A stretch of DNA of 64,000 nt from NCBI GenBank assembly GCA_965661285.1, contig CBFIDD010000001.1, forward strand, positions 436,852 through 500,851, read 5' to 3'. Under the pieces are notes generated by a model. It saw only the letters and a program-made list of their open reading frames with translations, was not told the origin of the DNA and did no database searches. Below are positions 10,324-30,933 of the stretch, piece by piece (the stretch's first letter is position 1; the number at the start of each line of letters is the position of its first letter). A program made the translations under genes and the position numbers. Origin of the DNA: Poseidonia sp. Its GTDB lineage: Archaea; Thermoplasmatota; Poseidoniia; Poseidoniales; Poseidoniaceae.

Positions 10324-10391
10324 GCCATCCCCTTGGTCAAAGCCAACGGCTGGCCCTTCATCTTCTTTGCGAGACGCTTGAACCGTGAGAA

Positions 10392-10468
10392 TGGTGCGCG
10401 AGGCAGGACTTGAACCTGCGACCTCCCGGTTATCAGCCGGGTGCTCTAACCGACTAAGCCACCCGCGC
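10392..10468 (-). tRNA. tRNA-Ile(GAT), CCA encoded
   Basis: GCGCGGG acceptor, anticodon arm CCCGG-CT-GAT-AA-CCGGG, T arm GCAGG-TTCAAGT-CCTGC, 3' ACCA. Confidence 0.95.
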
Positions 10469-10543
10469 AAGGGTAAACTCGCCGACTTGACCCCCCGTCA
10501 TAAGCATGACGGCTCGCACTGGAGTGCTTCTCGACGAAAGGAA

Positions 10544-11128: not shown

Positions 11129-11537
11129 TTCCCATCTCTCCTGCCGATTTTGTTCGGCTTACCCTTCTGTCGACATCGGCACCTAATATATTCTTCGTAG
11201 AATAAAATATCATTTCCAATTACATTTGACGCATAATCTACCCTTCAACCAATTGAAATATAGAAAAAAATTTGATTTTTGATGTCGCATAACGCGTCAA
11301 ACTGCAGTTGAATTCTTTCTTCTATCGAGTAGGCAAAGAAACTGATTTCCAATTGGAAACACAAGAATAGAGAAAATTTCTTCCGCCGATACATTTCGGG
11401 GCGTCAACAGATCTGAAAGTTTGCATTTTTCAATTGAGGATTCGCATATTTTCGCGATTTTTGCTGCTCCTCGCCCGTTGAGAAGTGTGAGCACCAAGCC
11501 GAGAAGTCTTGATGAGGTAGGCCCCCTGCGTTAACCC
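11129..11537. promoter_or_regulatory. AT-rich intergenic island between divergent genes, carrying several CAATTG-core palindromes (candidate centromere-like or origin region)
   Basis: Sharp drop in GC; TTTCCAATTGGAAA at 11346-11359; related sites at 11213-11222, 11246-11259 and 11427-11440; inverted TTTGACGC/GCGTCAAA at 11225/11294. Confidence 0.6.
11346..11359. repeat. 14-bp palindrome TTTCCAATTGGAAA, exact copy 1 (intergenic)
   Basis: Read directly from the sequence. Confidence 0.9.
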
Positions 11538-12338
11538 ATGACCGTCGTGATGCTGCTCGCTGACCCCCAGCACCCGCTGGTGTCGGCCGTCGTGGAACGG
11601 GGTATGATGGAGGGCCTCACGTTCACCACGACCCCAGTGCTGGAAGACGCCCTCAAACACGAGCACAAGGCGATTTTGCAAGCCTTTCCGGACAGCTTTC
11701 AGCCTCAACGAGAAACCACGGTGGCTGATTGGTCCATCGAAATCGCAGGAGCGCAAAGGCCGCCCGCAAACTGCCCGATTCACCGACGCATGACCGTTCA
11801 ATTCGGCCACGAGAACCCCACAACATCCAGTGAGCACCTGGTTGTTTTCGTTCACGATATGCTGCCGCCAGCACCCGTTTCCGAAGAGGCCGGCTTCTTC
11901 GCCGTGTGGCTCACGCACGTCGAGGAGAACACCAAACCCGACCTCAGGGGGGATCAACGATACTGGTGTGACCGGTTTGATGTGGCGTACGGCGTGGTTG
12001 AGCTCCTCAAAGGCAAGCCCGAGGAACCATCGCTTCACTTGGCGGGCCGACGAGCGTGGTCACTTGAGGAGACCTGGATGGAATTCACAGACCTCGCACG
12101 GCGTGCTCGAGCCGGACAAACGGGCCATTTCGAGGTGGACCACCTCGTTGCAAAAGGCGTCCAGTCCGTCAAAGCCGTCAGCGTGGAAGCGGCGGCGAAT
12201 CGCTACGAACGACCGGACTTGGGCGCCATTCACCGTTTTCTCAAGAACGTGGACGGCGAAGGTTGGCGCCCAAAAATACCGCTACGCCAAAGTTTGATGT
12301 TCGTCCTTGCTGACCTCAACGAGCGTCAAGACGCGTGA
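11538..12338 (+). CDS. Hypothetical protein, possibly a degenerate extended-SDR (epimerase-like) fold
   Basis: C-terminal GWRPKIPLRQSL and RFDVAYGVVELL resemble epimerase motifs; no GxxGxxG. Confidence 0.55.
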   Translation: MTVVMLLADPQHPLVSAVVERGMMEGLTFTTTPVLEDALKHEHKAILQAFPDSFQPQRETTVADWSIEIAGAQRPPANCPIHRRMTVQFGHENPTTSSEHLVVFVHDMLPPAPVSEEAGFFAVWLTHVEENTKPDLRGDQRYWCDRFDVAYGVVELLKGKPEEPSLHLAGRRAWSLEETWMEFTDLARRARAGQTGHFEVDHLVAKGVQSVKAVSVEAAANRYERPDLGAIHRFLKNVDGEGWRPKIPLRQSLMFVLADLNERQDA

Positions 12339-13342
12339 GGCTCACTGAAGAGGTCAGCACCCAGGAGCGGAAGCAGGAGACTCGCATCACCTTCAACACA
12401 GACGTGCGGGGCCTCCGGCCTCATCTTACCCCACGAGATGGCTTCACGGAGCCGTGCACCCGAGAGGCTGCCATCGTGCTCGGGTGCCGTGGTGATGTAA
12501 ACGGCACTGTCAAGCCCGCCGCGGTATTGATTCCACCATATGACGTGATGTTTGGAGATGCCTCCTCCAACCATCAAGGCGTTCGAGGTTTCAACGTCCC
12601 AGGTCAAGTCGCTCATGATTTGCTCGTCAGCCAGGGTGTCAAGGTGGAAATCTCGGTGTTTTTGCCTGAACATGAACAACTGCGCACCGATTGAACCGTC
12701 GGTGATGCCCGGGATACACACGGGAATACGGTGTTTTGCAGCCCAATAAATCAGCGTATCCGGCGTTCCAATACGCTCGCCGAGCTCCCATACAAGATGG
12801 ATGGAGCCAAAGCCTAACCAAGCATCGGCGCCCGTCTTTCCCGTTTGTTCAAGTCGGTCGTTGTAAATCTCTTCGAGGACGGGCAGGACCACGGCTTCAA
12901 TGATTTCACCGTAGGATGCGTTGGGTACGATCACGTTGCCAAGTCGCATCAATTCGTGTTGACCCAACTCGATATCATCCAGTTCAAACGAGCCGTGGTA
13001 GTAGTGCTTGTAGGCGCGTGCAATGTCGTGGTCAAGCGTTCCGCAGGTGGTTGAAACCACGTTGAACATCTTTCGCTTGATGGCTTCAACGAAGAAACCA
13101 CGGGTCCCCGTGGCACACAAACAGGCGGGGAACGAAAGCCAGTTGGTCACCTTTGTTGCATCACCGTCCACGGCCGCTGCTTCACTGCGCATCTGCTCAA
13201 GGATGCTGCGGGCCTGCGCGAACTTCGTTGCAGTAAAGCCTCCAGCCAACGCCATTTGATCAATCAGCGCACGAGGAGAGCTGGCCTTTGAGAAATCATA
13301 GTCGACGACGGGGACATCAAAGGCATCAGGGTCAACAGCCAT
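12326..13342 (-). CDS. dys: Deoxyhypusine synthase
   Basis: GGFTA, STTCGTLDHD, RLGNV, PGITDGSIG, GGGISKH, DGSLSGARLREAISWGK. Confidence 0.95.
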   Translation of the reverse strand: MAVDPDAFDVPVVDYDFSKASSPRALIDQMALAGGFTATKFAQARSILEQMRSEAAAVDGDATKVTNWLSFPACLCATGTRGFFVEAIKRKMFNVVSTTCGTLDHDIARAYKHYYHGSFELDDIELGQHELMRLGNVIVPNASYGEIIEAVVLPVLEEIYNDRLEQTGKTGADAWLGFGSIHLVWELGERIGTPDTLIYWAAKHRIPVCIPGITDGSIGAQLFMFRQKHRDFHLDTLADEQIMSDLTWDVETSNALMVGGGISKHHVIWWNQYRGGLDSAVYITTAPEHDGSLSGARLREAISWGKMRPEAPHVCVEGDASLLLPLLGADLFSEPHAS

Positions 13343-13393
13343 GGTACAACCTCGCGGCTTTGCTTCATGAAGGTGGCCCTCAGAGGGGTTGGA

Positions 13394-15823
13394 CTAATCG
13401 TTCCAGCGTTCCAATTCATGAAGCCGGTCTCGAAGTCGTGCGGCTTCTTCAAAATCAAGGTCCTTGGCCGCTTCGTTCATCGCTTGTCGCAACGATTCCA
13501 TGAGGGCTGCTCGCTCGTCTGGCGAGAGATCGGCAGCGAGGTCATCTGGTTCATCATATGTCAATTGAGAATTTGAATTTTCAATTGCTTTTTCACTCTT
13601 CTCGGTCGCACCCCACGAACCCGCCCCGAGTCGCAAGCGCTGCGCCCAGTCGCCGTCTCGACGTCCACCTTTTTTGGCGATGAGGCGGCGTTTCCCATCA
13701 CTTCCCGTGGTCGTGCCGGCGATGGTTTCGTCCTCGGTCTGCCCCATGACGGGAAGGGCCTTGACGATGGTTTTGGGGGTGATGCCCAACGCTTCGTTGT
13801 TGGCTTGTTGGCGTTGTCGACGTTCGAGCGTTTGCCGAATGGCCGCCTCCATGGCAGGCGAAAACCCGTCAGCATACAGGAGCACCTTGCCGTTTTGATT
13901 TCGAGCGGCTCGACCGATGGTTTGCAAGAGACTTCGCTCGTTTCGAAGGAAACCCTGGCGGTCAGCATCGAAGATGGCCACCAAACTCACTTCTGGAATG
14001 TCAAGACCCTCTCGCAGCAGATTGATGCCGACAATCACGTCGATGTGCCCGTGGCGCAGGGCGTTGATGATCTCGGTGCGCTCGATGGTGTCAATTTCCG
14101 AATGCAAGTGGTGCGCCTTGACCCCCATTCGATTGAGGTAGGCCGCAACCTCCTCTGCGAACTTGATGGTCATGACGGTCACCAAACACCGCTCACCTTG
14201 TTCAATTCGGGCGTTGATCTCAGTGAGGAGGTCGTTGATTTGACCGGCCGTTGGACGAACCTCGATCTCCGGGTCGAGCAGGCCAGTGGGCCTCAGCTCC
14301 ATCTTCGCAATGCCCTGTATGCTCTGAAGCATGTCGTACATGGATTCGGCTTCGGGGTGCTTTTTGGAGATATCCGGCTCTCCCGCCCCGCCGCCGCTGG
14401 GCGAGTGCAGAAGGCCGTTGGGGACGGTTTGTCCGGTGATTTCGCAAAGGTGCCGAAGTTCACGTTCACCCGGCGTGGCGGAAACATAGACCATTTGGGG
14501 GACCAAACGCTGGAATTCAGGGAGTTTAAGCGGGCGGTTGTCCGCTGCGGTTGGCAAACGGAAGCCGTGCGTGATGAGGCTCTCTTTGCGAGAACGGTCG
14601 CCGTGGTACATGCCCCCAACCTGCGGGAGGCTCACGTGGGATTCGTCCATGATGACGAGGTACTTCTGTGGATCGCCGTGGAATTGATTGGCGCACGCCG
14701 CGAAGAAATCAAGCAGGCAGTACGGCCGTTGACCCGGTTCACGGCCATCAAAGTGCAAGGAATAGTTCTCCACAGACTGGCAGTGGCCGATTTCACGCAG
14801 CATTTCGAGGTCGTATTCGGTTTTCTGCTCCAGACGGTAGCGTTCGAGTTCTTTGCCCTGTTGGGCGAACCACTTGCTGCGTTCGTTGAGTTCTTGCTCG
14901 ATGGATTCCAAGGCCGCCTCAAACCGTTCGGGGCTGGTCATGAAGAATTCCTTCGGGTGAATCCATGCCTCCTCAAGGTTGTCCAACGCCTCCCAAGACA
15001 CCGGGTCACAAATTTGGATGCTCTTGATACCGTCAAAGTCGAACACGATGCGAAGCGGGTCGTCGCGGCTTGGCATCCAGATGTCGACCACTTCACCTCG
15101 GACTCGACATTCGCCTCGCTTGAGGTCGGTTGTCGTCCGGCGATATTGAAGTTCAATTAATTCCCTCAGAAGGTCGCGGGTTTCGATGGCTTGTCCTACA
15201 TGGCAGCGCAGATGATACTCCAGGAAGGTCTCGGGCGGATTCAAACCGTAAATGCAGGAGACCGATGAGACGACCACGCAATCCGGTCGGGAAACCAACG
15301 AGGCCACCGCCGCAAAGCGCTCTTGCTCGATGCGTTCGTTAATGCTCAGCTCTTTGTCAATGTACAGGTCCCGCTTGGCGAGGTAGGCCTCTGGCTGATA
15401 GTAGTCATAGTGAGAGACGAAATATTCCACCGCATTGTCGGGAAAGTAACCCACCATTTCCTGATGTAACTGGCGAGCAAGGGTCTTGTTGTGGCTCATG
15501 ATGAGGGTCGGGATGTTGAGTTGCTCGATGATGTGCGCCATGGCAAACGTCTTGCCGCTGCCGGTTACACCCAGCAGCACACAACGTTCTTGACCATTTT
15601 CCAATTGGGAAATCAATTTTTCTATTGCTTTTGGTTGGTCTCCGGCCGGGTCAAACTCGGCGTGGAGACGGAACCGCTTCACGTCGGGCCTCAATTCCTC
15701 GAGCGCAGCCCCGTCGAGGGCTTTGGAGAGGTCAAACGGATTTCGCTCAGAAAGGTCGACCTCCAACAGCGGTTGGTCAGCCAGCGCCTCAAAAGAGCCG
15801 TCGTCGTCCCAGTCATTCACCAT
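13394..15823 (-). CDS. uvrB: Excinuclease ABC subunit B
   Basis: PAGDQPKAI, GVTGSGKT, HNKTLARQL, YDYYQPEAY, DESH, GINLLREGLD, C-terminal UVR domain DFEEAARLRD. Confidence 0.97.
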   Translation of the reverse strand: MVNDWDDDGSFEALADQPLLEVDLSERNPFDLSKALDGAALEELRPDVKRFRLHAEFDPAGDQPKAIEKLISQLENGQERCVLLGVTGSGKTFAMAHIIEQLNIPTLIMSHNKTLARQLHQEMVGYFPDNAVEYFVSHYDYYQPEAYLAKRDLYIDKELSINERIEQERFAAVASLVSRPDCVVVSSVSCIYGLNPPETFLEYHLRCHVGQAIETRDLLRELIELQYRRTTTDLKRGECRVRGEVVDIWMPSRDDPLRIVFDFDGIKSIQICDPVSWEALDNLEEAWIHPKEFFMTSPERFEAALESIEQELNERSKWFAQQGKELERYRLEQKTEYDLEMLREIGHCQSVENYSLHFDGREPGQRPYCLLDFFAACANQFHGDPQKYLVIMDESHVSLPQVGGMYHGDRSRKESLITHGFRLPTAADNRPLKLPEFQRLVPQMVYVSATPGERELRHLCEITGQTVPNGLLHSPSGGGAGEPDISKKHPEAESMYDMLQSIQGIAKMELRPTGLLDPEIEVRPTAGQINDLLTEINARIEQGERCLVTVMTIKFAEEVAAYLNRMGVKAHHLHSEIDTIERTEIINALRHGHIDVIVGINLLREGLDIPEVSLVAIFDADRQGFLRNERSLLQTIGRAARNQNGKVLLYADGFSPAMEAAIRQTLERRQRQQANNEALGITPKTIVKALPVMGQTEDETIAGTTTGSDGKRRLIAKKGGRRDGDWAQRLRLGAGSWGATEKSEKAIENSNSQLTYDEPDDLAADLSPDERAALMESLRQAMNEAAKDLDFEEAARLRDRLHELERWND
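13558..13591. repeat. Pair of degenerate palindromes (CAATTG cores 20 bp apart) inside uvrB
   Basis: ATGTCAATTGAGAA and TTTTCAATTGCTTT in an AT-rich patch. Confidence 0.6.
15598..15631. repeat. Near-exact palindrome TTTCCAATTGGGAA with a degenerate partner 20 bp away, inside uvrB
   Basis: 13/14 match at 15598-15611; TTTTCTATTGCTTT at 15618-15631. Confidence 0.75.
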
Positions 15824-15844
15824 GGAATCACCCGCATGCTCGCA

Positions 15845-16576
15845 TCAGGGGAGATAAAGTCCGCCGTTGACATGAAGAATGGCGCCTGTGATGTAGGATG
15901 AATCAGGACCGACGAGGAAGGAAACGGTGGCCGCCATGTCCTCGGGTGAACCCACACGCTGAAGGGGCACTTCCTGTTCCCGCTGCTGACGCTTTTCGGG
16001 GCTATCGCCGGCGAGGATGTCGGTGTCCACGTAGCCGGGGGCGAGAATGTTCACACGCTTGCCCTCTGGACCAACGGACTGTGCAAGCGAGCGCGCCCAC
16101 GTCGATAGGGCAGCTTTTGAGGCGGCGTAATCTGCGCCGTGCGGGGAGCCCCGAGTCCCGAGTTGAGAGCCAACCACCACCATCCGTGCGTGTGGCGTCA
16201 AGTAGGGCTGGACGGCTTTCCACACGGCTACGGCACCCTCAAAATTGGTTTTCATGGTCGCCGTCAAATCATCGAGGGTCATGGCGTGGCCCTGCACCCG
16301 GTTGTAGACGCCGTGATTCAACACGAGCACGTCAATGCCTCGATCCATCCACGGGTGTTGACCGAGCAAGCCAACCTCGCCCATGTCAGCACAGTCGACC
16401 TTCACCGCCAACGCATCGTCGCCACGCTCTCGGATTTCATCAACGATCATCTCGGCTGGCTTGGAAGATTGATTGTAGGTGAGCAGGACGTCGTAGCCGT
16501 CAGCGGCCAAGCGGTCGGAGATGGCGGCACCAATTCCTCGACCACCACCGGTGACAAGCGCTACGGGACGGCTCAT
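15845..16576 (-). CDS. SDR-family oxidoreductase (FabG-like)
   Basis: TGGGRGIG, YAASK, VNILAPGYVDT, YITGAILHVNGG. Confidence 0.92.
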   Translation of the reverse strand: MSRPVALVTGGGRGIGAAISDRLAADGYDVLLTYNQSSKPAEMIVDEIRERGDDALAVKVDCADMGEVGLLGQHPWMDRGIDVLVLNHGVYNRVQGHAMTLDDLTATMKTNFEGAVAVWKAVQPYLTPHARMVVVGSQLGTRGSPHGADYAASKAALSTWARSLAQSVGPEGKRVNILAPGYVDTDILAGDSPEKRQQREQEVPLQRVGSPEDMAATVSFLVGPDSSYITGAILHVNGGLYLP

Positions 16577-16620
16577 GAGGTGGGGTGGGCTTCATTGTTC
16601 ATGAAACCATGTGAGCGCTT

Positions 16621-17007
16621 TCACACATCGTCGGGAAGGAATTGCGCCAACTGAGGAGGTTGCCAGCCCTCGGGCTTCAGCACCTTGCCGTCTTCGCGAC
16701 GGATGACCTTACCGTCCACCAACTTGGCCATATTGGAGCGGTGAACCTCATTGAAGGCATCGTCGTAAATGTCCTGCATGCCGTGGTTGATGATGGTTCC
16801 AGCGAGGATGTAGCCAATATCGGCCAGCGCATCCAAGACCTCAACCAAATCCCCTGCACGGGCGGCCTCGGCGTACTCTTGCACTTCTTCGGTCAGCAGT
16901 TTGATTCGCAGCTCGATCAGTTCATCTGGCCCGAGACCGGGGGCGTCAAGTTTGGGAATCTCAAAGGCTTGGTTGAATTCAAGCAGCGAGGCGACGATGG
17001 GGTTCAT
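16621..17007 (-). CDS. MazG-like/PRA-PH nucleoside triphosphate pyrophosphohydrolase
   Basis: LLTEEVQEY, DALADIGY, EVHRSNMAK, REDGKVLKP. Confidence 0.88.
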   Translation of the reverse strand: MNPIVASLLEFNQAFEIPKLDAPGLGPDELIELRIKLLTEEVQEYAEAARAGDLVEVLDALADIGYILAGTIINHGMQDIYDDAFNEVHRSNMAKLVDGKVIRREDGKVLKPEGWQPPQLAQFLPDDV

Positions 17008-17074
17008 GAACAGCGTTTCTCAAGCCGGCTCAAGAACCTTCACCACCTTGAGTTCGAGGTGATGAGCGGGTGCA

Positions 17075-17995
17075 TCAGTCAAGTGCAGAACCTGCAGATT
17101 CGACCGAGAATCCGAAGACCAAGGCGACCAACAATACCCATCCCGTGAGCATTGACACCCGAAACAGCACCGTTTGGAAGTCGGCGAAGCGATTCATCCG
17201 AAGAACGACGACGATGTTGGCCAGTGCCATGATGGCTGCGGCACCGAGGAACCAAATCCCGTCCATAGGATCCGAGATTGCAAAGCAGGCAAACCAGAGC
17301 AGCGAAAGTTGCACCGTCGTGCGTGTTGTTGCCTTGTCCCCAAATTTCGACGGGAAGGAATGGATGCCCTGCTCGCGGTCGCTCTCAACGTCCATGCGAG
17401 CGTAATTGATGTCAAAGGCGGCAATCCACAAGGCGACGCCAATGGAAATGGGCAGGATGGTCGGCACCCAAAGGAATTCGGTTCGCCCGGATAGCAAGCC
17501 GGTGATGGCCCCCCAGCCGTGAACATCTGCAGCGATGGCGACCCAAGCCCCGGCGGGAGCGAGACCGAGGCAAAGCCCCAGCCAGAAGTGGCACCCCCAA
17601 GTAAAGCGCTTCATGTACGGGTAGATCACGAAGGTCAGCACGGGCAGCCAGGCCATCATCAGAGCGACCCTGTTCAGCAATCCAGCGCTGATGAGTAACA
17701 TCGCCAAGAACACGGCTGCAAGGCCCCAGGCCGCCCCCATGCTCATGCTGCCAGAGGCGAGATGGCGTCCTTGTGTGCGAGGATTGGCGGCGTCGATGTC
17801 GCGGTCAATGATTCGATTGAGGGCCATGGCGAGCCCTCGGGCACCGACAGCGGCAAACAGGATCCAAACAAGGTCCATTCCAGGCTCGATGTTAAACTGG
17901 CGAAGAGCGATCATGTAGCCCATCAGTACGAATGGGAGGGAGAACAGCGTATGCTCGATTTTGATGAAGGACAAGACTTGCTTGACGTCCATCAC
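17075..17995 (-). CDS. UbiA-family polyprenyltransferase (MqnP-like)
   Basis: IKIEHTLFSLPF, MALNRIIDRDIDAANPRT, FDINYA, D..SDREQGIHSFP. Confidence 0.9.
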   Translation of the reverse strand: MMDVKQVLSFIKIEHTLFSLPFVLMGYMIALRQFNIEPGMDLVWILFAAVGARGLAMALNRIIDRDIDAANPRTQGRHLASGSMSMGAAWGLAAVFLAMLLISAGLLNRVALMMAWLPVLTFVIYPYMKRFTWGCHFWLGLCLGLAPAGAWVAIAADVHGWGAITGLLSGRTEFLWVPTILPISIGVALWIAAFDINYARMDVESDREQGIHSFPSKFGDKATTRTTVQLSLLWFACFAISDPMDGIWFLGAAAIMALANIVVVLRMNRFADFQTVLFRVSMLTGWVLLVALVFGFSVESAGSALD

Positions 17996-19932
17996 TCAGG
18001 GCCCCCAAAGGAAAGGTGGGGTGGCCATTCGTATTTCTTGAGTTCGGGGTGAGCGGCGACCTTGGCCAGCGTTTCCTCATCGTGCAGAGTTACAGCAGGC
18101 CAGCGGCGCACGCCGTGTTCTTCGGAAGGGATGGGCGTGGTCGCGTCCCAACAAAGGCGGGACTTCTGGTCGTCAAAGGTGAGGCCGCGTCCCACATCAA
18201 AGCGGGAGGTCAACTGCCAAAGCAGGCGACGGCGAGCTTTCGTGTGCGTCATATCCAGGTCGTCGTTGGTGATGAATAACCAACGTAGATTCTTTCCAGA
18301 ATCCAATTGCCAAATTGAATTTCTCAATTGAAGAATTTGCTCAATTCGCTTTCCTTCTTGTTCATCGTTCCCGTCGTGCTGTCCCGTTCGGGGACTTGGG
18401 GTGCCCTCGATGGAGGTTGAAACCACGAGCATGTTGTCTCGCAGCATCCGTGCTTGACGAACTTCGGGAAGAGCGGCCACGGCCTCAAGGCCGGTGAAGG
18501 GTTCTGAGGGCTTGGTGCCCTGTCGCCACGCAGGTGTTGGTTGATTGTAGGAGCCCTCAAGCGGCTCGTCCGAAGAGCGAGGGTCGGTGGAGACCAACGT
18601 CGTGGCGTCGATGAGCAGCTTGTCGTGAACGTTCTCGAAGGGCGAAGCGGCTTCCAGTGCATCCGCCACCATACCCGGAAGCACCACCACGTCTTCGCTG
18701 ATTTCCACCTTGTCGTTGAGTGCGTCAAGGAAAGCCTCGAGGTCCTTGGGATTTTGATCGGGGTCGATGGCGGCGATGACCTTGAGGAACATCATTTGCC
18801 CAGCACCAAGCAATCCGAGTGCTGTTTTACGGCCTTGGCGAGGATAACGTTGTTTGGAAGCAACAATGGCCAGGTTGTGAAAGCCGGTTTCGAGGGGCAA
18901 ATGCACGCTTTTGACGTCGCGATGTTGGAACTGAAGAACAGGAGAGAATTGACGCCCAATGGCCTCACCGAGGAACCCGTCCTCCATCGGGGGAAGACCG
19001 ACGATGGTTGCGGGAAGGATAGCATCGGACCTGCAGGTGATGGCGGTTACGTGGAGTACGGGATACTGACCTGTCAGAGAGTAAAATCCGTAGTGGTCCC
19101 CAAACGGACCCTCAAGTTTGGTCTCGGTGGGGTCGCAGTACCCTTCGATGATGATATCGGCCTCCGCGGGCACCCAGAGGTCTTGGGTCAGGGCCTTGGT
19201 GATGGGAAGGGATTTCTGGCCGAGGATCCCTGCGAATTGATACTCCGAGAGATTGTCCGGAAGGGGCGAAATCGCTGAAAAAATGAGTTCTGGTGGCCCA
19301 CCGATGCAAACGGCCACCGGCATTCGTTCACCTTTGGCAGCGTGTTCGGCGCCGTGCTTGTGAATCTGCCAGTGGAGTCCGAGTTCGGTCTCGTTGTGGA
19401 CCTGCGCCCGATACATCCCAAGGTTGTGCTCGCCGCTCGAATCTTTGGTGACCACCAGCGGCAGGGTGACGAAATGACCGCCGTCCATCGGCCACGTCTT
19501 GGGAATGGGCAGTTTGGTCAGGTCGTTGGGCAAACGGACGCGCTGCCCCTTGCCCTTGCGGACTTTCTTGGGCGGCATGGCGAGAGCGTCTCGCAGCAGC
19601 GGCAGACCCTTCCATGGCTTTCGCATGTAAAGGCCGATATCGGGTTTCATCATCGCCACCATGCGGTCGCCGATTTCCGTCTCATGGGTGGCGCCAAGTG
19701 CCTGCAACGTCCGGTCGTGGCCTCCAAAGGCGTTCATCAGAAGCGGGATGGACGAAATCGTGCCATCGGCCAGCCGTGGCTGCTCGAACAGGACCGCTGG
19801 CCCGTCGTTCTTGACCAGGAGGTCGGCGATGGCGCCGGCTTCGTAGACGACGTCGACCGGCCGGTCTATGCGAAGCAATTCATCCCGTTCTTCGAGATGC
19901 TTCACCCAACGCCTCAACGTCTTCCAAGCCAC
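17992..19932 (-). CDS. UbiD-family decarboxylase (MqnL-like) with extended C-terminus
   Basis: WPMDGG, NLGMYR, HWQIHKHGA, EGPFGDHYG, VGLPPMED, LLGAGQMMFLK. Confidence 0.9.
   Translation of the reverse strand: MAWKTLRRWVKHLEERDELLRIDRPVDVVYEAGAIADLLVKNDGPAVLFEQPRLADGTISSIPLLMNAFGGHDRTLQALGATHETEIGDRMVAMMKPDIGLYMRKPWKGLPLLRDALAMPPKKVRKGKGQRVRLPNDLTKLPIPKTWPMDGGHFVTLPLVVTKDSSGEHNLGMYRAQVHNETELGLHWQIHKHGAEHAAKGERMPVAVCIGGPPELIFSAISPLPDNLSEYQFAGILGQKSLPITKALTQDLWVPAEADIIIEGYCDPTETKLEGPFGDHYGFYSLTGQYPVLHVTAITCRSDAILPATIVGLPPMEDGFLGEAIGRQFSPVLQFQHRDVKSVHLPLETGFHNLAIVASKQRYPRQGRKTALGLLGAGQMMFLKVIAAIDPDQNPKDLEAFLDALNDKVEISEDVVVLPGMVADALEAASPFENVHDKLLIDATTLVSTDPRSSDEPLEGSYNQPTPAWRQGTKPSEPFTGLEAVAALPEVRQARMLRDNMLVVSTSIEGTPSPRTGQHDGNDEQEGKRIEQILQLRNSIWQLDSGKNLRWLFITNDDLDMTHTKARRRLLWQLTSRFDVGRGLTFDDQKSRLCWDATTPIPSEEHGVRRWPAVTLHDEETLAKVAAHPELKKYEWPPHLSFGGPE
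18300..18350. repeat. Cluster of degenerate CAATTG palindromes inside the UbiD gene
   Basis: Cores at 18304, 18325 (TTCTCAATTGAAGA) and 18342 in an AT-rich patch. Confidence 0.6.
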
Positions 19933-20047
19933 ACTTGCCCCTGCGGGTTCTTGGCTTTGAACCTCCGTATGGAAGCCATCGCAGGTAAAACGACCTCAAT
20001 GGTCCACCGTTGCCTTCATGGGCTTCCCCCCGCTGGTTTGACACAAG

Positions 20048-21277: not shown

Positions 21278-21311
21278 GGCCCGCTGCCTTCATGGAAAAA
21301 GAGCAAAGGCC

Positions 21312-23870: not shown

Positions 23871-23933
23871 ACCCCTCCAATGGAATTATGAAGGGGGGGC
23901 TGGTCGCCGAAACATCCACTTGGAGGGAACACC

Positions 23934-24779
23934 ATGGAAGAAGGAACAATTGTTCACGTTGATTACGAGCTCTACAACAGCGAAAGCGGCGACCTCATCG
24001 AAACCACGCGAGAAGACGTGGCCAAGGAGCACGAAGCCCATCAAGAAGGCCGCTCCTACACGCCCATGGTGTGCGTTGTCGGTGGTGGCAACCTCATCCC
24101 CGGTTTTGAAGCCGCTCTGGCCGAAGCCAAGGCCAACAAGGAAATCGAAGTGGTCATTGAACCCGCTGAAGCCTACGGTGAGAAAGACCCCGAGCAGATC
24201 GAAACCATCAGCATCGACAAACTCATTCGGGCTGTCAAAGACCCCAATTCGCTCTACATCGGCGCTCCGGTAAACATTGGCAACCGCCAAGGCTACCTGT
24301 CCTACTTGGCCGCAGGTCGAGCCCGCATCGACTACAACCACCCCATGGCTGGAAAGACCCTGAAGTACAGCTTCAAGGTTGTCAAGGTCGTTGAAGGGAA
24401 GGAAGAACAAGTCATGGCCCTGCTGGAATCCAACACCGGCCACAGCGACTTCGGCGTGTCGTTTGCCGGCGATGACCTCAACATCACCATTCCACAAACC
24501 ATGCTCTTCGATACCAACGCTGCCATGATGAAGTTCCGATTGGTCACCATCATCAGGGACGCTGTCGAGTGCGGCAAGGTGTCGTTCATCGAAGTCCACG
24601 AACCCCGTGGATTTGGCCTCGGTGATGACGAGGATGACCACGATCACGACGAGGCTGAAGACCTCTCCAAACTCTCTGTTGCCGAACTCAAAGAGCGATT
24701 GAAGGCAGCTGGCTTGCCTGTTAGCGGCAAGAAAGCCGACCTGATCGAACGCCTCTCCGCTTCGGGCGAAGAAGAGTGA
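23934..24779 (+). CDS. slyD: FKBP-type peptidyl-prolyl isomerase (long archaeal SlyD type) with C-terminal SAP domain
   Basis: LIPGFEAAL, EAYGE, DYNHPMAGKTLKY; tail LSKLSVAELKERLKAAGLPVSGKKADLIERL. Confidence 0.9.
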   Translation: MEEGTIVHVDYELYNSESGDLIETTREDVAKEHEAHQEGRSYTPMVCVVGGGNLIPGFEAALAEAKANKEIEVVIEPAEAYGEKDPEQIETISIDKLIRAVKDPNSLYIGAPVNIGNRQGYLSYLAAGRARIDYNHPMAGKTLKYSFKVVKVVEGKEEQVMALLESNTGHSDFGVSFAGDDLNITIPQTMLFDTNAAMMKFRLVTIIRDAVECGKVSFIEVHEPRGFGLGDDEDDHDHDEAEDLSKLSVAELKERLKAAGLPVSGKKADLIERLSASGEEE

Positions 24780-24832
24780 ACCAACGGAAAAGGAATAGGC
24801 GACCACGCCGTGGGTCGTCATACTGAGCCCTG

Positions 24833-26215
24833 ATGACCATGAGCGAGATGAGCCCGTCATCCGACTTTCCAGAACCGTTGCCTGACGACCGGTATTCTCC
24901 GGTTGAAAAGGCGCTGATTTGGGCCGCCATCGCCCTCGTTTTTGCCATCACTGCGGGGTTGATCCTCGCCTTTGATACCGTATGGACCGAGACGCTCAAA
25001 CCCATCATCTGGGACCCTGTGGTCAAGGATGCAGGTGTGGCGGGCGACGCTGGCTATACGCCACAAAACACCGCCATCTACACCTTGAGCATGCTCGCCT
25101 GTGTGGTGTTGTTTCAAGCCCTGTTCCGAAAATGGGCCTTGCCCTGCGACGAGCGCATGACGGTGGCCCTCATCGCATGGGTGTGCCTTGCCCCGGTGTT
25201 GCGGGTGCTCGAAGATGCTGATTTCTTCTCGTCCTCTCGAGACGTCTTGTTCATTTCACCCATCATTCACCTCCACCTCGCAGCATGGCTGGTCGGCGTG
25301 GCGGTGCTAAGCCATCTCACAGGGCGAGCCTTTGACGGCCGTTCGGACGATGCATCGCAGGAAGCCCAAGTCACGCTTCTGGCCGGTTTGCTCTTCGTTC
25401 TCCTCTTTGGGCACTGGTACCTGCTGTATCAGCCCGCCTACGCCAGCCACCCCGATGTATCGTTCTCCTTCGCAACGGGCGGTTTGGCCGTTTCTGCAGC
25501 CGTCTTGTGGGCAACCTTGGTGATGACACGTGGCTGGCCCGCGATGACCCGTGGCATGTACGCCTTCGCCACCGGTGCGGTGGTGCTCGGTGTGGCCCAT
25601 TGGATTCAATTCATGCTCACGCCATGGGCTCAAGAAAGCGGTATGGCCTCCGGGGACATCACGTTCTGGCCGGCCCTCATCGTCCTTGGTTTGCCCGCTA
25701 TCGTCTGCGTTGCGCTGTACCGAATGGGTAGAGAAGATGCACACCAACTCCGGCTCACCGGTTTCTCAGCCGGCGTGCTTCCAGCCCACATCGGCATCAA
25801 ACAATGGGAAGCCGAGGCCGAACAATGGGCCGACCACCCGGTTGAATTCCTTTCCAACAAAGCCCTGCTCGCCCACCCCATGGTCCTCGGGATGGTCTTT
25901 GGGCAGTTGTGCGACGGCTTTGCCACCATGATGGGGATCGACATGTTCGGGTATGGAGAAAAACATCCGGTGAGCGATGCCGTCATCCAATTTGGCGGCA
26001 GGATCAACGACAGTGTGGGTATTGAATGGGGCGAAGGCGCCTGGTTGTTTGCGCTGGTCAAAGCGGCGCTCGTCGGACTCATCGTGTGGCTCTTCGTCCA
26101 GATGCGCGTGGAACACCGGCAGCAACATTTCCGTCTGCTCATCGTCCTCGCCGTGCTCATCGTCGGCCTCGCACCGGGCCTGCGTGATATCGGACGACTG
26201 ATGCTCGGCGTATGA
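24833..26215 (+). CDS. DUF63-family polytopic membrane protein
   Basis: GYTPQNT, LRVLEDA, FISPIIH, GQLCDGFAT, YGEKHPVS, GLAPGLRD. Confidence 0.8.
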   Translation: MTMSEMSPSSDFPEPLPDDRYSPVEKALIWAAIALVFAITAGLILAFDTVWTETLKPIIWDPVVKDAGVAGDAGYTPQNTAIYTLSMLACVVLFQALFRKWALPCDERMTVALIAWVCLAPVLRVLEDADFFSSSRDVLFISPIIHLHLAAWLVGVAVLSHLTGRAFDGRSDDASQEAQVTLLAGLLFVLLFGHWYLLYQPAYASHPDVSFSFATGGLAVSAAVLWATLVMTRGWPAMTRGMYAFATGAVVLGVAHWIQFMLTPWAQESGMASGDITFWPALIVLGLPAIVCVALYRMGREDAHQLRLTGFSAGVLPAHIGIKQWEAEAEQWADHPVEFLSNKALLAHPMVLGMVFGQLCDGFATMMGIDMFGYGEKHPVSDAVIQFGGRINDSVGIEWGEGAWLFALVKAALVGLIVWLFVQMRVEHRQQHFRLLIVLAVLIVGLAPGLRDIGRLMLGV

Positions 26216-26280
26216 GTTGCCACCCGTTGGCTTCCATGCAATTAAGTGCAGGCTTCGCTTCGCCCAAATGAGGGCTCAAC

Positions 26281-27891
26281 ATGGACAGGTTGCCGACCAG
26301 AGTCAATCGTGCCGACCCCGACTTTGCCGCCCGAAAAGCCCACAACCTTGCCCTTGTGGATGAGTTGCGAGCTCGTTTGGAGGCGGCCTCCGAAGGCGGT
26401 GGAGGAAAATACGTCGAGCGCCATCGTTCTCGCGGAAAGCACCTCGCAAGAGAACGCATTGAGCGCATTGTCGACCCCGGAACGGCCTTTCTCGAACTTT
26501 CACCGCTCGCCGCTTACGAACTCTACGACGGGCGAGCCCATTCCGCCGGCATCGTGACCGGAATTGGCATGGTGCACGGCCGGGAATGCCTCTTCGTTGC
26601 CAACGACGCCACCGTGAAAGGCGGTTCATACTATCCCATGACCGTCAAAAAACACATCCGTGCCCAAACCGTAGCCCACGAAAACCATCTGCCCTGCATC
26701 TATCTCGTGGACTCCGGCGGTGCGTTCCTGCCCCTTCAGGACGAAGTCTTCCCCGACATCGGCCACTTTGGGCGAATCTTTCGAAACCAAGCACGCATGT
26801 CGGGCGATGGCATTCCACAAGTTGCGGCCGTTCTCGGGTCGTGCACGGCGGGCGGTGCATATGTTCCCGCCATGTCGGACGAATCCATCATCGTGAAAGG
26901 GAACGGAACGATTTTCCTCGCAGGCCCACCCCTCGTCAAAGCGGCCACCGGAGAGGAAGTGACGGCCGAGGAACTGGGTGGCGCTGATGTTCACACGGCC
27001 CAATCCGGTGTCGCCGACCATTTCGCAGAAGATGAGAACGAAGCCTTGCGAATGGTTCGCAACGCGATCGAGAACCTGGGCCCTGTTGAGAAAGCCCCGG
27101 CAGCGATGCAGGAACCCGAGCCGCCCGCACACGAAGTTGAAGACCTCATGGGGCTCATTCCAGCGGACAACCGCACCCCCGTCGACATTCGTGAGATCAT
27201 CGCTCGCATCGTTGACGGTTCTCGATTTCACGAGTTCAAATCCCGGTATGGCACCACCCTTGTTTGCGGATTTGCCAACATCCACGGGCACAAAGTCGGC
27301 ATCGTGGCCAACAACGGTATTCTCTTCTCTGAGTCGAGCCAGAAGGGCGCCCACTTCGTGGAGCTCTGTGGGCAACGGGGCATCCCGCTCGTGTTTTTGC
27401 AGAACATCACGGGCTTCATGGTCGGCAAGGCCTACGAGGCGGGCGGCATCGCCAAGGACGGGGCCAAGTTGGTCACCGCCGTGTCGTGCGTGAACGTTCC
27501 AAAATTCACGGTCATTGTCGGCGGCTCACACGGCGCAGGGAACTACGGGATGTGCGGTCGTGCCTACGACCCCAGGTTCCTCTTCATGTGGCCCAACAGC
27601 CGAATTTCCGTCATGGGTGGCCCGCAAGCGGCCGATGTCTTGACCACCGTCAAGCAGGACCAGCGTGCACGTGAAGGCACCCCGCCCATGGAAGGCGAAG
27701 AACTCGAAGCCTTCCGGCAACCCATCCTTGACAAATACGAAACCGAGGGCAGCCCGTACTATTCCACCGCTCGTCTCTGGGACGACGGCATCATCGACCC
27801 GAGGGACACGCGAGACGTGTTGGGGCTGTGTTTGGCCACCGCTCGAAACGCCCCGCTGCCCGACGACCGGTACGGCATCTTTAGAATGTGA
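26281..27891 (+). CDS. liuB: Methylcrotonyl-CoA carboxylase, carboxyltransferase (beta) subunit
   Basis: [65 protein letters not shown]. Confidence 0.92.
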
Positions 27892-27892
27892 T

Positions 27893-27926
27893 TTTTATAT
27901 TCGAAATTTGACTTTGCAATTGGAGA
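27893..27926. repeat. Degenerate palindrome pair in the liuB-hydratase intergenic gap
   Basis: TTTGCAATTGGAGA (12/14) at 27913-27926; TTTTATATTCGAAA 20 bp upstream. Confidence 0.7.
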
Positions 27927-27933
27927 ATTCAAC

Positions 27934-28797
27934 ATGATAGCAATGGACGAACCACCCGCCACTTCCATGGTTTCGCTGACCGTTGACGGTTCCCGAGCGA
28001 ACCTCACCCTGACTCGCCCCCGCAAATTCAACGCCATGAACGTGGAGATGATCCAAGAACTCATCACGCTGCTCGAGTGGACCGCTCAACGCAGTGCTGG
28101 TCGCCTCGAGGCCCTTCACGACGCGGAAGGCCGACCGTACCTGCGCACGCTGGTGCTGAAGGGCGAAGGCAAGCATTTCTGCGCCGGAGCCGACATCAAC
28201 ATGATGCGGGATGCAGGCGCCAACACGCCAGAAGAGAACCGGGCGGACTCTGAGCGACTCGACCGGTTGTTCAACGGGTTGTGGGCCCACCCCTGCTTCA
28301 CCATCGGTGCGGTCCAAGGCGTGGCTTTGGGCGGAGGCGCCGGCCTCATCGCCTGTTGCGATTACGTGGTGGCCACCGGCAACATCCGCATCGCGCTGTC
28401 GGAAGGCAAACTCGGCATCCTCCCGGCCGTCATCGGCCCGTACGTCTACCGACGTCTCGGCTCAGCCACCTTCCGTCGCCTCTCCATGCAGGCCAGCCGA
28501 ATCAACGGCGAAGAAGCGCTTCGCGTGGGCTTCGTCGAGGCCCTCGTGGAAAGCAACGACGACCTTGAGGGCGCCGTGGAGCGCATGATTGCCGAAGTCA
28601 TGACCACCGGGCCGTCCGCCGTCACGTTGTCAAAGGAACTCACGCTTGGATTCGACCGCTGGACGGCATCTGATCTTGCCTTGCGCGAGTGGACGCTTGA
28701 TTTTACCAGTCGTATGCGAGGTTCAAAAGAAGGCCAAGAAGGCCTCTCCTCCTTCTTGGAAAAGCGACCGGCGAATTGGAAACCTCAAGACGAGTAG
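27934..28797 (+). CDS. liuC: Enoyl-CoA hydratase family (likely methylglutaconyl-CoA hydratase)
   Basis: FCAGADI, ALGGGAGL, SEGKLGILPAVI; operon context. Confidence 0.85.
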   Translation: MIAMDEPPATSMVSLTVDGSRANLTLTRPRKFNAMNVEMIQELITLLEWTAQRSAGRLEALHDAEGRPYLRTLVLKGEGKHFCAGADINMMRDAGANTPEENRADSERLDRLFNGLWAHPCFTIGAVQGVALGGGAGLIACCDYVVATGNIRIALSEGKLGILPAVIGPYVYRRLGSATFRRLSMQASRINGEEALRVGFVEALVESNDDLEGAVERMIAEVMTTGPSAVTLSKELTLGFDRWTASDLALREWTLDFTSRMRGSKEGQEGLSSFLEKRPANWKPQDE

Positions 28798-28803
28798 GGA
28801 GGG

Positions 28804-30312
28804 ATGAACATCAAGGTCCTCGTTGCAAACCGTGGAGAAATCGCTTGTCGAATTCTTCGCGCATGCAGGGAAGCAGGCCACCCCACCGTCGCCGTGTGCG
28901 CCCCCAACGATGAAGGGACCATGTTTACCGAAATGGCTGACGAGGTGGTGGTGCTCAACGGCGAAACCATCGGCGAGACATACCTCGATCAGGAACAGAT
29001 TATTCAAGCCGCTTCATCAACGGGAGCGACGGCGATTCACCCCGGATTTGGCTTTCTCTCCGAGCGGGCCGATTTTGCTCGAGCGGTCAAGGCTGCCGGG
29101 CTGGTATGGGTCGGCCCGTCTGCCGGAGCCATCGAAAAGATGGGCGACAAAATGACCGCCCGTCAAACGATGCGGGCCGCTGGCGTTCCCGTGATTCCCG
29201 GCGAAGAGGTCGAAGAAGAGGATGAGCAAGCCGCCATTGAAGCGCTGCGCCAAGCCTCGACAAGGGTCGGCTACCCGCTCCTGTTGAAAGCCTCCAGCGG
29301 TGGCGGCGGCAAGGGAATGCGAGCGGTTCACGACCCCGCTGATTTTGACCAGGCCGCTACGGGCGCTCGTCGCGAAGCCGTGGCCGCCTTCGGCGACGGG
29401 CGGATTTACATCGAACGCTTGCTATCGGGCTCAAAACACATTGAAATCCAAGTGCTCGCCGACGGCCACGGGCGTACGATTCATCTTGGCGAGCGTGAAT
29501 GCAGCGTGCAACGGCGCCACCAGAAAGTGTTCGAAGAAGCACCGGGACCCACCATGGACCCCGAACTGCGCGAGGCGATGGGACAGGCTGCCGTGGCAGC
29601 GGCTGAAGCGGTGGATTACGTCGGTGCGGGGACCGTCGAATTTCTTCTTGCGCCCTCCGGCGAGTTCTTTTTCCTCGAGATGAACACCCGAATCCAAGTT
29701 GAGCACCCGGTTACGGAACTGGTCACCGGCGTGGACATCGTACGAGAACAACTCCGCATTGCTGGCGGAGCGCCCATGTCCTGCGGACCGTTGATGCTTC
29801 GCGGACACGCAATTGAGGTTCGGCTGTACGCCGAGGACGCCGCCAACGGGTTCCTCCCCTCCATTGGCCCGCTCGCCTTGTTTCGACCGCCCGAGGGGCC
29901 CGGTATTCGACTTGACACCGGTGTTCGCGAAGGGGACGAGGTGACACCGAATTACGACCCGATGCTTGCGAAACTCATCGTTTGGGCCCCTTCACGGCCA
30001 GAAGCCTTGCAGAAAATGCGACGGGCACTGGATGAATTTGTCGTGCTTGGCACCACCACCAACATCGAGTTCCTTCGCGACCTCTGCGATGTTGGCCCAG
30101 TTGTCGACGGCTCAACCACCACGACCACCATCGACGACCTGTGGCCGGACGGATGGAATCCACCAACAGCACCGATGCTGGAAGAGGCCTCCCTGCTGGC
30201 GGCGGCCAGCGCGGAAACGCTCGGACTCCATCGCCGAATCGCTGCTGGCTCATCCGGCGAGAGCAACGAGCCGGCCAATCCGTTCACCACCATTCAGAGG
30301 AGGTTTCCCTGA
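28804..30312 (+). CDS. liuD: Biotin carboxylase subunit of an acyl-CoA carboxylase
   Basis: VLVANRGEIA, HPGFGFLSE, GGGGKGMR, ERECSVQRRHQK, EMNTRIQVEH, YDPMLAK. Confidence 0.9.
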   Translation: MNIKVLVANRGEIACRILRACREAGHPTVAVCAPNDEGTMFTEMADEVVVLNGETIGETYLDQEQIIQAASSTGATAIHPGFGFLSERADFARAVKAAGLVWVGPSAGAIEKMGDKMTARQTMRAAGVPVIPGEEVEEEDEQAAIEALRQASTRVGYPLLLKASSGGGGKGMRAVHDPADFDQAATGARREAVAAFGDGRIYIERLLSGSKHIEIQVLADGHGRTIHLGERECSVQRRHQKVFEEAPGPTMDPELREAMGQAAVAAAEAVDYVGAGTVEFLLAPSGEFFFLEMNTRIQVEHPVTELVTGVDIVREQLRIAGGAPMSCGPLMLRGHAIEVRLYAEDAANGFLPSIGPLALFRPPEGPGIRLDTGVREGDEVTPNYDPMLAKLIVWAPSRPEALQKMRRALDEFVVLGTTTNIEFLRDLCDVGPVVDGSTTTTTIDDLWPDGWNPPTAPMLEEASLLAAASAETLGLHRRIAAGSSGESNEPANPFTTIQRRFP

Positions 30313-30770
30313 TGCAACACACCTTCGCATCCAAAGAAGGGCCCTTGGAGGTGACGCTGGCTCGCAACGGCGAGGCGTTTGTGTTGGAGGGCCACGAGCT
30401 CACGGTCCACAACAGAGGCCGATTGCACGTTCGGTTGCGAGATGGACGGGTTTGTTTGGCGCACGTTGCCAAGGTGGGCGATGTTTGGTGGATCCACCTT
30501 GACGGGCGCACGTATCGCTGGGAGCGTATCGAGGCCGGCTCCTCGAGTGCTGAGGATGAAGGCGGACTGGTGGCGCCCATGCCCGGCAAAGTTCTCGAAG
30601 TCCTCGTCAACGAAGGCGATGCTGTTGAAGCAGGGACGCCCTTGATGGTGCTGGAGGCCATGAAAATGGAGCATCGCATCGTTGCTGCGTCCGAAGGAAC
30701 CGTCACCTCGGTTCATTTTGCTGCTGGCGACCAGGTCGCCCAAGGCGCTGTGTTGTTGGAATTGGATTAG
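30312..30770 (+). CDS. Biotin carboxyl carrier protein
   Basis: APMPGKV, EAMKMEH biotinylation motif; TGATG overlap with the upstream gene. Confidence 0.92.
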   Translation: MQHTFASKEGPLEVTLARNGEAFVLEGHELTVHNRGRLHVRLRDGRVCLAHVAKVGDVWWIHLDGRTYRWERIEAGSSSAEDEGGLVAPMPGKVLEVLVNEGDAVEAGTPLMVLEAMKMEHRIVAASEGTVTSVHFAAGDQVAQGAVLLELD

Positions 30771-30787
30771 ACACGCCATGCCTGCAT

Positions 30788-30824
30788 AATTTTCCAATTG
30801 GAAAATTGATTTTTCAATTCGTAA
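30788..30824. repeat. 20-bp perfect palindrome AATTTTCCAATTGGAAAATT (exact copy 3) with a degenerate partner 20 bp away
   Basis: 30788-30807 read directly; TTTTCAATTCGTAA at 30811-30824. Confidence 0.9.
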
Positions 30825-30933
30825 TTTTCATGCCGTATTTCCGAAGAAATGAACGCTCTTTCGCCTTCGAAAATTGGCTCTGCCGACCTACAAGAAAACG
30901 GACGGTTATAAAGCAAAAGAATGTGCAAAAATC

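Follow-up and report, generated by a model that had tools for sequence, protein, structure and literature searches.

The stretch of DNA analyzed here, 64,000 nucleotides of Poseidonia sp. contig CBFIDD010000001.1 (positions 436,852 to 500,851; referred to below as the window), carries an AT-rich DNA element that recurs at seven loci, P1 to P7, within about 20 kb. Six full elements are located at 13.5 to 30.8 kb, and four single boxes are located in a spacer at 11.1 to 11.5 kb. Four of the seven loci are intragenic, two of them in uvrB, one in the gene of a UbiD-family decarboxylase, and one in the gene of geranylgeranyl reductase (GGR), with gene families assigned by Pfam and NCBIfam. The occurrence of the element is not due to chance, its copies are clustered in the window, and they are under purifying selection on the DNA sequence across the genus Poseidonia. 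The Poseidoniales are among the most abundant archaea of the surface ocean; to our knowledge, none of them is in culture, and the organization, replication, and segregation of their chromosomes are not understood. Parts of the array were noticed in a preliminary description made from the sequence alone, which reported exact 14-bp palindromes at 11346, 20439, and 30791, near-copies at 15598 and 27913, and weaker sites at 11246, 11427, 13558, 13578, and 18321. The exact and near copies were confirmed by a pattern search, the weaker sites proved to be real CAATTG-centered boxes, and the placement of four loci in uvrB (twice), UbiD, and GGR was also confirmed.

P1 is a 409-bp spacer (11129-11537) between a divergent PRC-barrel gene (10544-11128, minus strand) and a poorly conserved open reading frame (ORF) (11538-12338, plus strand). 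It contains no full element and four single CAATTG-type boxes in both orientations, at 11213-11226, 11246-11259, 11346-11359 (an exact copy of the 14-mer), and 11427-11440. The nhmmer matches at these boxes are weak (E values of 0.31 to 7.8), which is consistent with half elements. In an alignment of the window with 22 related loci (23 sequences, with columns judged among the 14 rows listed), the boxes occupy conserved columns ahead of the probable PRC-barrel promoter. The same region has a TATA-like box rich in A and T, a hairpin in the 5' untranslated region, and a GGAG-type ribosome site before the ATG. The AT-rich part of the spacer is 180 to 400 bp long in the relatives. The roughly 170 nt that adjoin the PRC-barrel gene (11129-11297) are almost invariant across the relatives and contain, in the minus sense, a direct repeat of the 10-mer TTATGCGWCA about 55 nt apart in addition to the TATA-like box, the small hairpin, and the GGAG site, which makes this control region unusually elaborate for so compact a genome.

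The full elements P2 and P3 lie in uvrB (13394-15823), both on the minus strand. P2 (13547-13594; nhmmer match at 13555-13591, E value of 1.8e-5) covers codons 744 to 759, in a linker that is otherwise hypervariable in protein sequence, and the start of the deoxyhypusine synthase gene is 213 nt downstream; the sites at 13558 and 13578 are two boxes of this one element. P3 (15587-15634; nhmmer match at 15595-15630, E value of 9.4e-7) covers codons 64 to 79. The encoded UvrB exceeds the family profile by about 49 N-terminal residues, and its UVR domain is preceded by a long hypervariable linker. P4 (18297-18333, minus strand; E value of 6.4e-7), of which the site at 18321 is part, lies at codons ~534 to 546 of the UbiD-family menaquinone decarboxylase gene (17992-19932), within a C-terminal extension of about 200 residues; its 21-nt core has no mismatches, and a UbiA/MqnP-like gene follows about 300 nt downstream. 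Two elements are thus found in lineage-specific parts of UvrB and UbiD. P5 (20411-20458, plus strand; nhmmer match at 20418-20454, E value of 6.1e-7) covers codons ~122 to 137 of the GGR gene. P6 (27894-27928, plus strand; E value of 6.2e-6) fills the 42-bp spacer between the stop codon of a carboxyltransferase gene and the start of an enoyl-CoA hydratase gene at 27934, with CAATTGGAG placed 8 to 9 nt upstream of the ATG. P7 (30789-30825, minus strand) is a full element between the stop codon of the biotin carrier protein gene at 30770 and the start of an MMPL/HAE3 transporter gene at 30874. It gave nhmmer E values of 3e-7 on the minus strand and 6.4e-4 on the plus strand, has a 21-nt core with no mismatches, contains a 20-bp perfect palindrome, and adjoins a promoter-like TTTCATG box. 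The biotin carboxyl carrier protein gene itself (30141-30770, plus strand; Biotin_lipoyl, 5e-18) completes an operon of carboxyltransferase, hydratase, biotin carboxylase, and carrier protein, and because the plus strand encodes this biotinyl domain, the minus-strand ORF at 30294-30797 is spurious.

Alignment of the AT-rich patches shows that the conserved unit is an oriented element of about 35 to 48 bp made of three dyad-symmetric boxes, CAATTG, AAATT-S-AATTT, and CAATTGGA, whose centers are about 10.5 bp, or one helical turn, apart. A logo of 183 nonoverlapping matches from the window and the related loci, which represent 136 unique sequences, comprises a weak left CAATTG, a strongly conserved AAAWT-S-AATTT, two variable bases, the invariant CAATTGGA, and a conserved T five bases farther on. 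The two bases preceding the right CAATTG differ by locus, being CC in GGR, CT in uvrB, and GG in UbiD, which indicates that the TTTCC/GGAAA palindrome belongs to some of the copies and not to the conserved unit. The 14-bp palindrome with these half-sites, which the preliminary description had taken as the unit, is therefore to be replaced by the longer, oriented, three-dyad element. On the simplest reading, each element would be a double-stranded DNA site read by a protein. The dyad architecture fits a dimeric DNA-binding protein, and three dyads one turn apart suggest that several dimers sit next to one another on the same face of the DNA.

The 14-mer TTTCCAATTGGAAA has exact copies at 11346, 20439, and 30791. 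In 100 shuffles that preserved dinucleotide composition, it did not occur at all, in agreement with the earlier estimate that far less than one copy per 64 kb is expected by chance. With up to two mismatches, five matches were obtained (those at 15598 and 27913 being additional) against 0.23 expected, a number reached in 0 of 100 shuffles. The 21-nt core pattern, with up to three mismatches, gave eight matches at six loci in the range 13560 to 30813 compared with 0.07 expected, and again no shuffle among 100 reached eight. An nhmmer profile built from the six copies in the window returned exactly the six full elements, with E values of 3e-7 to 1.8e-5, and outside 11 to 31 kb of the window its best match (46704-46732; E value of 0.19) is not AT-rich and was rejected as noise. 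The GC content is 54 to 62% throughout the window and 58% for the genome. All eight of the 40-bp windows with a GC content of at most 27.5% in the 64 kb fall in 11175-30842, and the motif, as a CAATTG-type core, is present in every one, so the claim that AT-patch sites occur only at about 11 to 31 kb is upheld; 11 of the 20 CAATTG hexamers in the window are inside AT-rich patches. For seven random loci, a span this short has a probability of 0.004 within the 64-kb window in which clustering was assessed. The earlier suggestion that the sites are confined to one region of the chromosome is supported in that they are clustered within this window, the 64 kb covered by the analysis.

Related loci were gathered by a search of genome contigs with the UbiD protein, and the best 80 of 491 confirmed loci were examined with up to 10 kb on each side. 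Their UbiD identities are 75 to 97%, and nearly all of them are labeled Poseidonia, Poseidoniaceae, or Poseidoniales. One of the loci (NZEQ01000075.1), titled as a Verrucomicrobiales bacterium metagenome-assembled genome (MAG), encodes a UbiD 97% identical to that of the window and has the same elements, and it is probably misbinned. The GC contents of the loci range from 0.40 to 0.60, which is a very wide spread in one genus-level group for loci with the same gene order and such UbiD identities. At least one element (profile E value of ≤0.01) was found in 78 of the 80 loci, nearly all in the same genes. The profile matches comprise 62 in UbiD, 53 in uvrB, 42 in GGR, 8 at the hydratase start, and 12 that gene mapping left unplaced; the low number at the hydratase start is due to the E value threshold and not to absence, and P6 occupies its spacer in each of the 58 sequences listed (the window and 57 loci). 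P5 holds an exact copy of the 14-mer, which is also exact at the orthologous place in many loci, including one with a GC content of 41% (L032). Where synteny is broken, the elements remain with their genes. P7 is outside the reach of the relatives' loci, and the conservation results cover the other sites.

Codon alignments of twelve genes were scanned in windows of 12 codons for the share of identical codons among sequence pairs with the same amino acid. The two top synonymous peaks of uvrB (37 sequences; gene mean, 0.43) are P3 (0.92; z = 5.7) and P2 (0.81; z = 4.5), the top peak of UbiD (76 sequences) is P4 (0.79; z = 5.5), and that of GGR (74 sequences) is P5 (0.84; z = 5.6). Same-codon identity is thus 0.79 to 0.92 in the four intragenic elements, in contrast to gene means of 0.40 to 0.43. 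Of the nine control genes, eight stay below a z of 3.5 throughout. The ninth, a heme lyase gene, gives a fifth peak (23817-23852; z = 5.6), which was discarded as an artifact of a hypervariable C-terminal tail with few comparable codons. In the codon alignments, third positions are frozen over about 45 consecutive nucleotides and vary freely on either side, and in the uvrB linker, the P2 element forms a conserved island in an otherwise unalignable protein sequence. The GC content at third codon positions is 0.06 to 0.23 in the elements, compared with 0.66 to 0.68 in their host genes (0.06 for P2 and 0.19 for P3 against 0.66 for uvrB). The preliminary description had made its proposal depend on whether the intragenic copies are conserved in relatives beyond amino-acid constraint, and they are conserved far beyond it.

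Across the intragenic copies, the motif is read in three different frames, which indicates that selection acts on DNA, and further copies are present in spacers. The synonymous-codon analysis, the three frames, and the spacer copies together rule out both a chance origin of the elements and amino-acid constraint. Rare-codon pause sites were also rejected, since the sequence is kept in relatives with 40% GC, in which such codons are not rare. Insertion of a mobile element, such as a miniature inverted-repeat transposable element or an in-frame palindromic element, was rejected for P3 and P5, and the intragenic copies are at orthologous codons in all relatives examined. The P3 segment aligns without gaps to a solved bacterial UvrB in the Protein Data Bank (PDB), which indicates that the element was written into an existing coding sequence and not inserted. 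P2 and P4, which lie in lineage-specific extensions, may descend from an ancient insertion. The sequences of the 136 unique instances speak against an RNA or cruciform hairpin, as the right arm never varies and changes in the left arm are uncompensated. Three of the six outer pairs, for example, have 49, 54, and 49 nonpairing cells out of about 134, and no double-sided change was observed in 13 candidate pairs. A search against Rfam found two tRNAs in the whole window and nothing in 10.9 to 31.1 kb, even at an E value of ≤1. An element acting at the RNA level, such as a binding site for a protein or small RNA, a processing site, or a hairpin, was considered because most copies are transcribed in the sense direction. 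Five of the six full elements are sense to the local transcription unit, and P6 is intercistronic. Along with the uncompensated arms and the lack of an Rfam family, the position of the P1 boxes, which stand in both orientations upstream of the likely PRC-barrel promoter, and the antisense best match at P7 make such a role very improbable.

The operon at 3466-4778, on the minus strand, is the only source of a candidate binder recognized in the window. Its first gene (3819-4778) encodes a Soj-type ParA ATPase (Pfam AAA_31, 3e-53; CbiA) with PDB matches to the ParA chain 8ray (7e-52), the Thermus Soj chain 1wcv (8e-43), and the chain 7dut, named "SOJ protein" (2e-16 over 76 residues), which we take to be SegA; homologs in Poseidoniales carry the source names "chromosome partitioning protein" and "Soj." An 80-amino-acid ORF follows 110 bp downstream (3466-3708), and its product is the candidate site binder. 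It has 145 homologs, the named ones being from Poseidoniales or Poseidoniaceae MAGs, and the first 23 residues hardly vary among homologs with overall identities as low as 42%. Neighbor clusters of this ORF in the Atlas are automatically named ribbon-helix-helix (RHH)/CopG. It has no significant sequence match in Pfam, NCBIfam, or PDB (the PDB matches being at chance level, with E values of at least 0.77). An AlphaFold2 (AF2) monomer model from a 25-row alignment is all-helical, with a mean predicted local distance difference test (pLDDT) score of 78, and a Foldseek search of PDB with this model returned nothing at an E value of <5. All of the element loci are 6.4 to 27 kb from the ParA operon, the nearest site being 6.4 kb away, and none is present in the other 44 kb of the window. 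The pair of genes is adjacent in a related locus too (L041), where it is linked to the region despite an inverted block. In that locus, a block with NDK, aIF5B, MoxR, ParA, and the 80-amino-acid ORF (L041:16171-21160) is inverted and lies about 4 kb from UbiD/UbiA, which points to a large inversion of the region in that species. PRC-barrel proteins have a role in archaeal cell division, and the product of the gene next to P1 was also considered as the binder. It was rejected, its PRC similarity being weak (Pfam E value of 0.002; Atlas) and its single-sequence AF2 model being unusable (pLDDT of 39).

Taken together, the analysis leads us to favor, with a probability of roughly 40%, the reading that the elements are cooperative sites for a dimeric protein with a centromere-like or domain-organizing function in a ParA/adaptor system. 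Several dimers of a single sequence-specific protein would bind each element cooperatively, all on the same face of the helix, and the seven loci would jointly mark a chromosomal domain of about 20 kb. They would act as centromere-like or domain-organizing nucleation sites for a ParA-type system, in which the bound protein could tether the domain to the nucleoid-bound Soj-type ATPase encoded 6 to 27 kb away. The favored binder would be the putative RHH protein of 80 residues encoded straight after the ATPase gene. This reading is favored because the precedents of SegB and HpaB fit it, and we count in its support the nearby ParA gene with its conserved small partner gene, as well as the invariance of both the N-terminal segment of that partner and the CAATTGGA box. 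The membership of the ParA gene in the system is inferred, and the RHH fold of the partner is putative.

Several observations weigh against this reading. Three of the seven loci are promoter-proximal, whereas intergenic DNA makes up 4.9% of the region (P = 0.004), which leaves some probability for a regulon; the other four loci lie deep in coding sequence. The full elements are co-oriented with the local genes in five of six cases. Both points suit a role in transcription no less well. Some of the flanking genes have related functions, including those for menaquinone synthesis, isoprenoid reduction, an acyl-CoA carboxylase, and a lipid-type transporter. The spacing from element to element is not preserved where synteny is broken, and the distribution data are limited to these 64 kb. 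No site is present at or in the ParA operon, with zero CAATTG hexamers in 1-9390, in contrast to SegB, for which sites directly upstream of segA and segAB are described (10.1101/2025.02.07.637068). The RHH fold is unconfirmed by Pfam, PDB, AF2, and Foldseek. The proposal that the sites belong to a dimeric protein is matched by the dyads and by the ParA and putative RHH genes 6.4 kb away, and nothing links that binder to the sites.

Alternatively, the elements might be operators or enhancer-like sites of a transcription factor. The menaquinone and isoprenoid genes would then form a local regulon together with the PRC-barrel gene, the MMPL-type transporter, and the acyl-CoA carboxylase/hydratase operon, with the intragenic copies acting on downstream genes or as roadblocks. 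P1, P6, and P7 adjoin start codons or promoter-like boxes, and the densest and best-conserved boxes stand just upstream of the TATA-like box of one gene. The co-orientation with transcription, the distances of P2 and P4 from the next gene (213 and ~300 nt), and the membrane and quinone themes common to several flanking genes (quinones, isoprenoids, and acyl-CoA) point the same way. Nevertheless, P3 and P5 are the most strongly conserved sites, yet no downstream gene start is within their reach. The gene set is also mixed, with uvrB, deoxyhypusine synthase, and heme lyase beside the lipid genes, and about 30 other promoters in the remaining 44 kb all lack the element. No transcription factor gene besides the 80-amino-acid ORF was recognized in the window. 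We therefore consider a transcription factor regulon unlikely, though it deserves serious attention.

General archaeal promoter geometry was used to compare the element with a specialized promoter, in which AAAWT-S-AATTT would form a TATA-like box with a transcription factor B recognition element (BRE), followed by a proximal CAATTGGA, and would drive leaderless or internal transcripts. At P6, the ATG at 27934 is about 26 nt from the central AT box, the run ahead of the AT box is purine rich and BRE-like, and the sense orientation of five of the six elements would be natural for a promoter. On the other hand, no start codon stands at a suitable distance from P3 or P5, P7 is directed away from both neighbors once the spurious ORF is removed, and the conserved stretch of about 45 bp runs on beyond the would-be start. 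Most genes in the window have a different upstream box, ccTTCATG. This box (or TTCCATG) recurs about 17 to 45 nt upstream of many starts, for example, at 13343-13393, 19933-20047, 21278-21311, and 30826-30840, and it could represent the usual promoter motif of this GC-rich lineage, in which most leaders would then be very short. A promoter role for the element is quite improbable on these grounds.

Another explanation is that the elements are variant origin recognition boxes (ORBs) for Orc1/Cdc6, with a replication origin at P1 or at the strand switch near 20 kb and additional initiator sites in the vicinity. The TTCCA/TGGAA dyad halves of some copies are common to the archaeal ORB consensus as given in Table 2 of PMC4153887, and a precedent for intragenic clusters is provided by the Thermococcales, in which ORBs bound by Cdc6 within dp1 extend over 5 kb and are conserved across the order (PMC1904270). 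The P1 spacer is long and AT-rich and contains repeated boxes, and ParA operons are often near origins (PMC13722703). The orientation of genes diverges at 19.9/20.0 kb: 15 of 16 genes are on the minus strand from 3.4 to 19.9 kb, and 11 of 12 are on the plus strand from 20.0 to 35.4 kb. This switch lies at the spacer between UbiD and GGR, at which neither an AT-rich stretch nor a GC-skew turn was detected. However, no orc1/cdc6 gene was found by Pfam among the 50 ORFs of the window, so the AT-rich 409-bp spacer with its boxes has no initiator gene within 64 kb. The canonical ORB core shows no enrichment, with 15 matches where 10.3 are expected and 18 of 100 shuffles reaching 15. Pyrococcus ORBs have a perfectly conserved TTCC part (PMC1904270), whereas this part is variable here. 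The ORB core, TTCC...GAA, has a one-base center and often a G-string, whereas the dyad here has one extra central base (a two-base center within an AATT core), variable bases at the positions equivalent to CC, and no G-rich extension. In addition, GC skew has no clear turn at 11 or 20 kb, and the genes to the right of P1 are mostly head-on to replication from P1. An origin built from such boxes is consequently improbable. A centromere-like site and an origin-proximal domain are not mutually exclusive.

Elsewhere in the window, two genes encode probable surface proteins. One (762-3209) has 815 amino acids with many Asp-rich, calcium-binding-like repeats and a C-terminal membrane anchor, and the other (43295-49750) has 2,151 amino acids with a MAM-like domain. 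The longest ORF of the ribose-phosphate pyrophosphokinase gene (9376-10470) overruns a tRNA-Ile gene on the same strand (10392-10468), which indicates that its true start is downstream of 10392.

Whatever protein reads it, the element is a sharply defined cis-acting sequence with base-level conservation data and a short list of candidate binders. It is also an unusually clean case of a noncoding signal inside conserved coding sequence, maintained in three frames and at GC contents of 40 to 60%, and it can be useful for gene finding, codon usage analysis, and studies of selection on metagenome-assembled genomes. If the centromere-like reading is true, systems composed of ParA and a small adaptor reach a major planktonic lineage, and this would be the first such segregation system in an abundant uncultured lineage of the plankton. 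Searches of an open-access library, by motif and by Marine Group II or Poseidoniales in combination with origin, Orc1, ParA, or segregation, found nothing on the element. The only motif-like match was the site CCAATTGG of a fly BEN-domain factor, which is irrelevant to archaea. The preliminary description knew of no such system in Marine Group II, and none was found here; comparable archaeal systems, those of SegB and HpaB, are in print.

Among bacterial systems, the sites of ParB (parS) and Noc are palindromic, often intragenic, conserved at the level of DNA, and clustered in one domain near a Soj-type ParA, and the elements share these properties. In contrast to parS/ParB, no ParB-family protein was found by Pfam among the 50 ORFs, and the gene after ParA is the unrelated 80-amino-acid ORF; in contrast to both parS and Noc sites, the element is longer and composite, and the host is an archaeon. 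The operator and centromere arrays of RHH proteins (Arc, MetJ, CopG, omega, ParG, and ParR) consist of short boxes about one turn apart that are bound by cooperative dimers on one face of the DNA. The several short dyad or repeat boxes of the element, spaced by about one helical turn, resemble these arrays. They differ in that the known arrays are at their own operon or at a plasmid centromere, whereas the elements here are dispersed over 20 kb and within genes.

The two closest archaeal comparisons are with systems in which an RHH protein is encoded next to a ParA-type ATPase. SegB of Saccharolobus/Sulfolobus, encoded after the ParA-like SegA, is an RHH protein with 46 binding sites, whose motif is a 13-bp palindrome composed of two hexamer dyads; 83 to 84% of the sites are intragenic, strong peaks cluster over tens of kilobases around segAB, and a role in chromosome organization has been proposed (10.1101/2025.02.07.637068). 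The likeness consists of a ParA-type ATPase gene followed by a small gene (here the 80-amino-acid ORF, there that of a site-specific RHH protein), a motif of short dyads, and discrete, mostly intragenic sites around the operon (here four of seven, within the window). The SegB motif, TCTAGA-S-TCTAGA, has 13 bp, whereas the present element is a three-dyad AT-rich sequence of 35 to 48 bp. Furthermore, the ATPase here matches bacterial Soj (8e-43 to 7e-52) better than 7dut (2e-16), which speaks against a SegA ortholog, and the 80-amino-acid protein has no sequence match to any PDB chain, SegB included. HpaB of Haloferax volcanii is the RHH partner of a bacterial-type ParA and binds six AT-rich sites on the GC-rich replicon pHV3 with little spreading (PMC13722703). 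The bacterial-type ParA, the small downstream gene (for HpaB, that of an RHH adaptor with no ParB similarity), and the handful of discrete AT-rich sites on a GC-rich replicon are similar here. All six hpaS3 sites are upstream of coding regions, whereas four of seven are intragenic here, and the hpaAB genes overlap by 4 nt, whereas a 110-bp gap separates the genes of the present operon. It is possible, though doubtful, that Marine Group II archaea have their chromosomal centromere in these elements, as a genus-wide array of composite sites embedded in housekeeping genes and conserved at the DNA level, for which a lineage-specific 80-amino-acid adaptor would act with a bacterial-type Soj ATPase as a third archaeal ParA-based kind beside SegAB and HpaAB. 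The kind of element, sequence-specific and often intragenic sites for a chromosome-organizing protein, is known; the composite three-dyad form, the lineage, and the likely adaptor are new.

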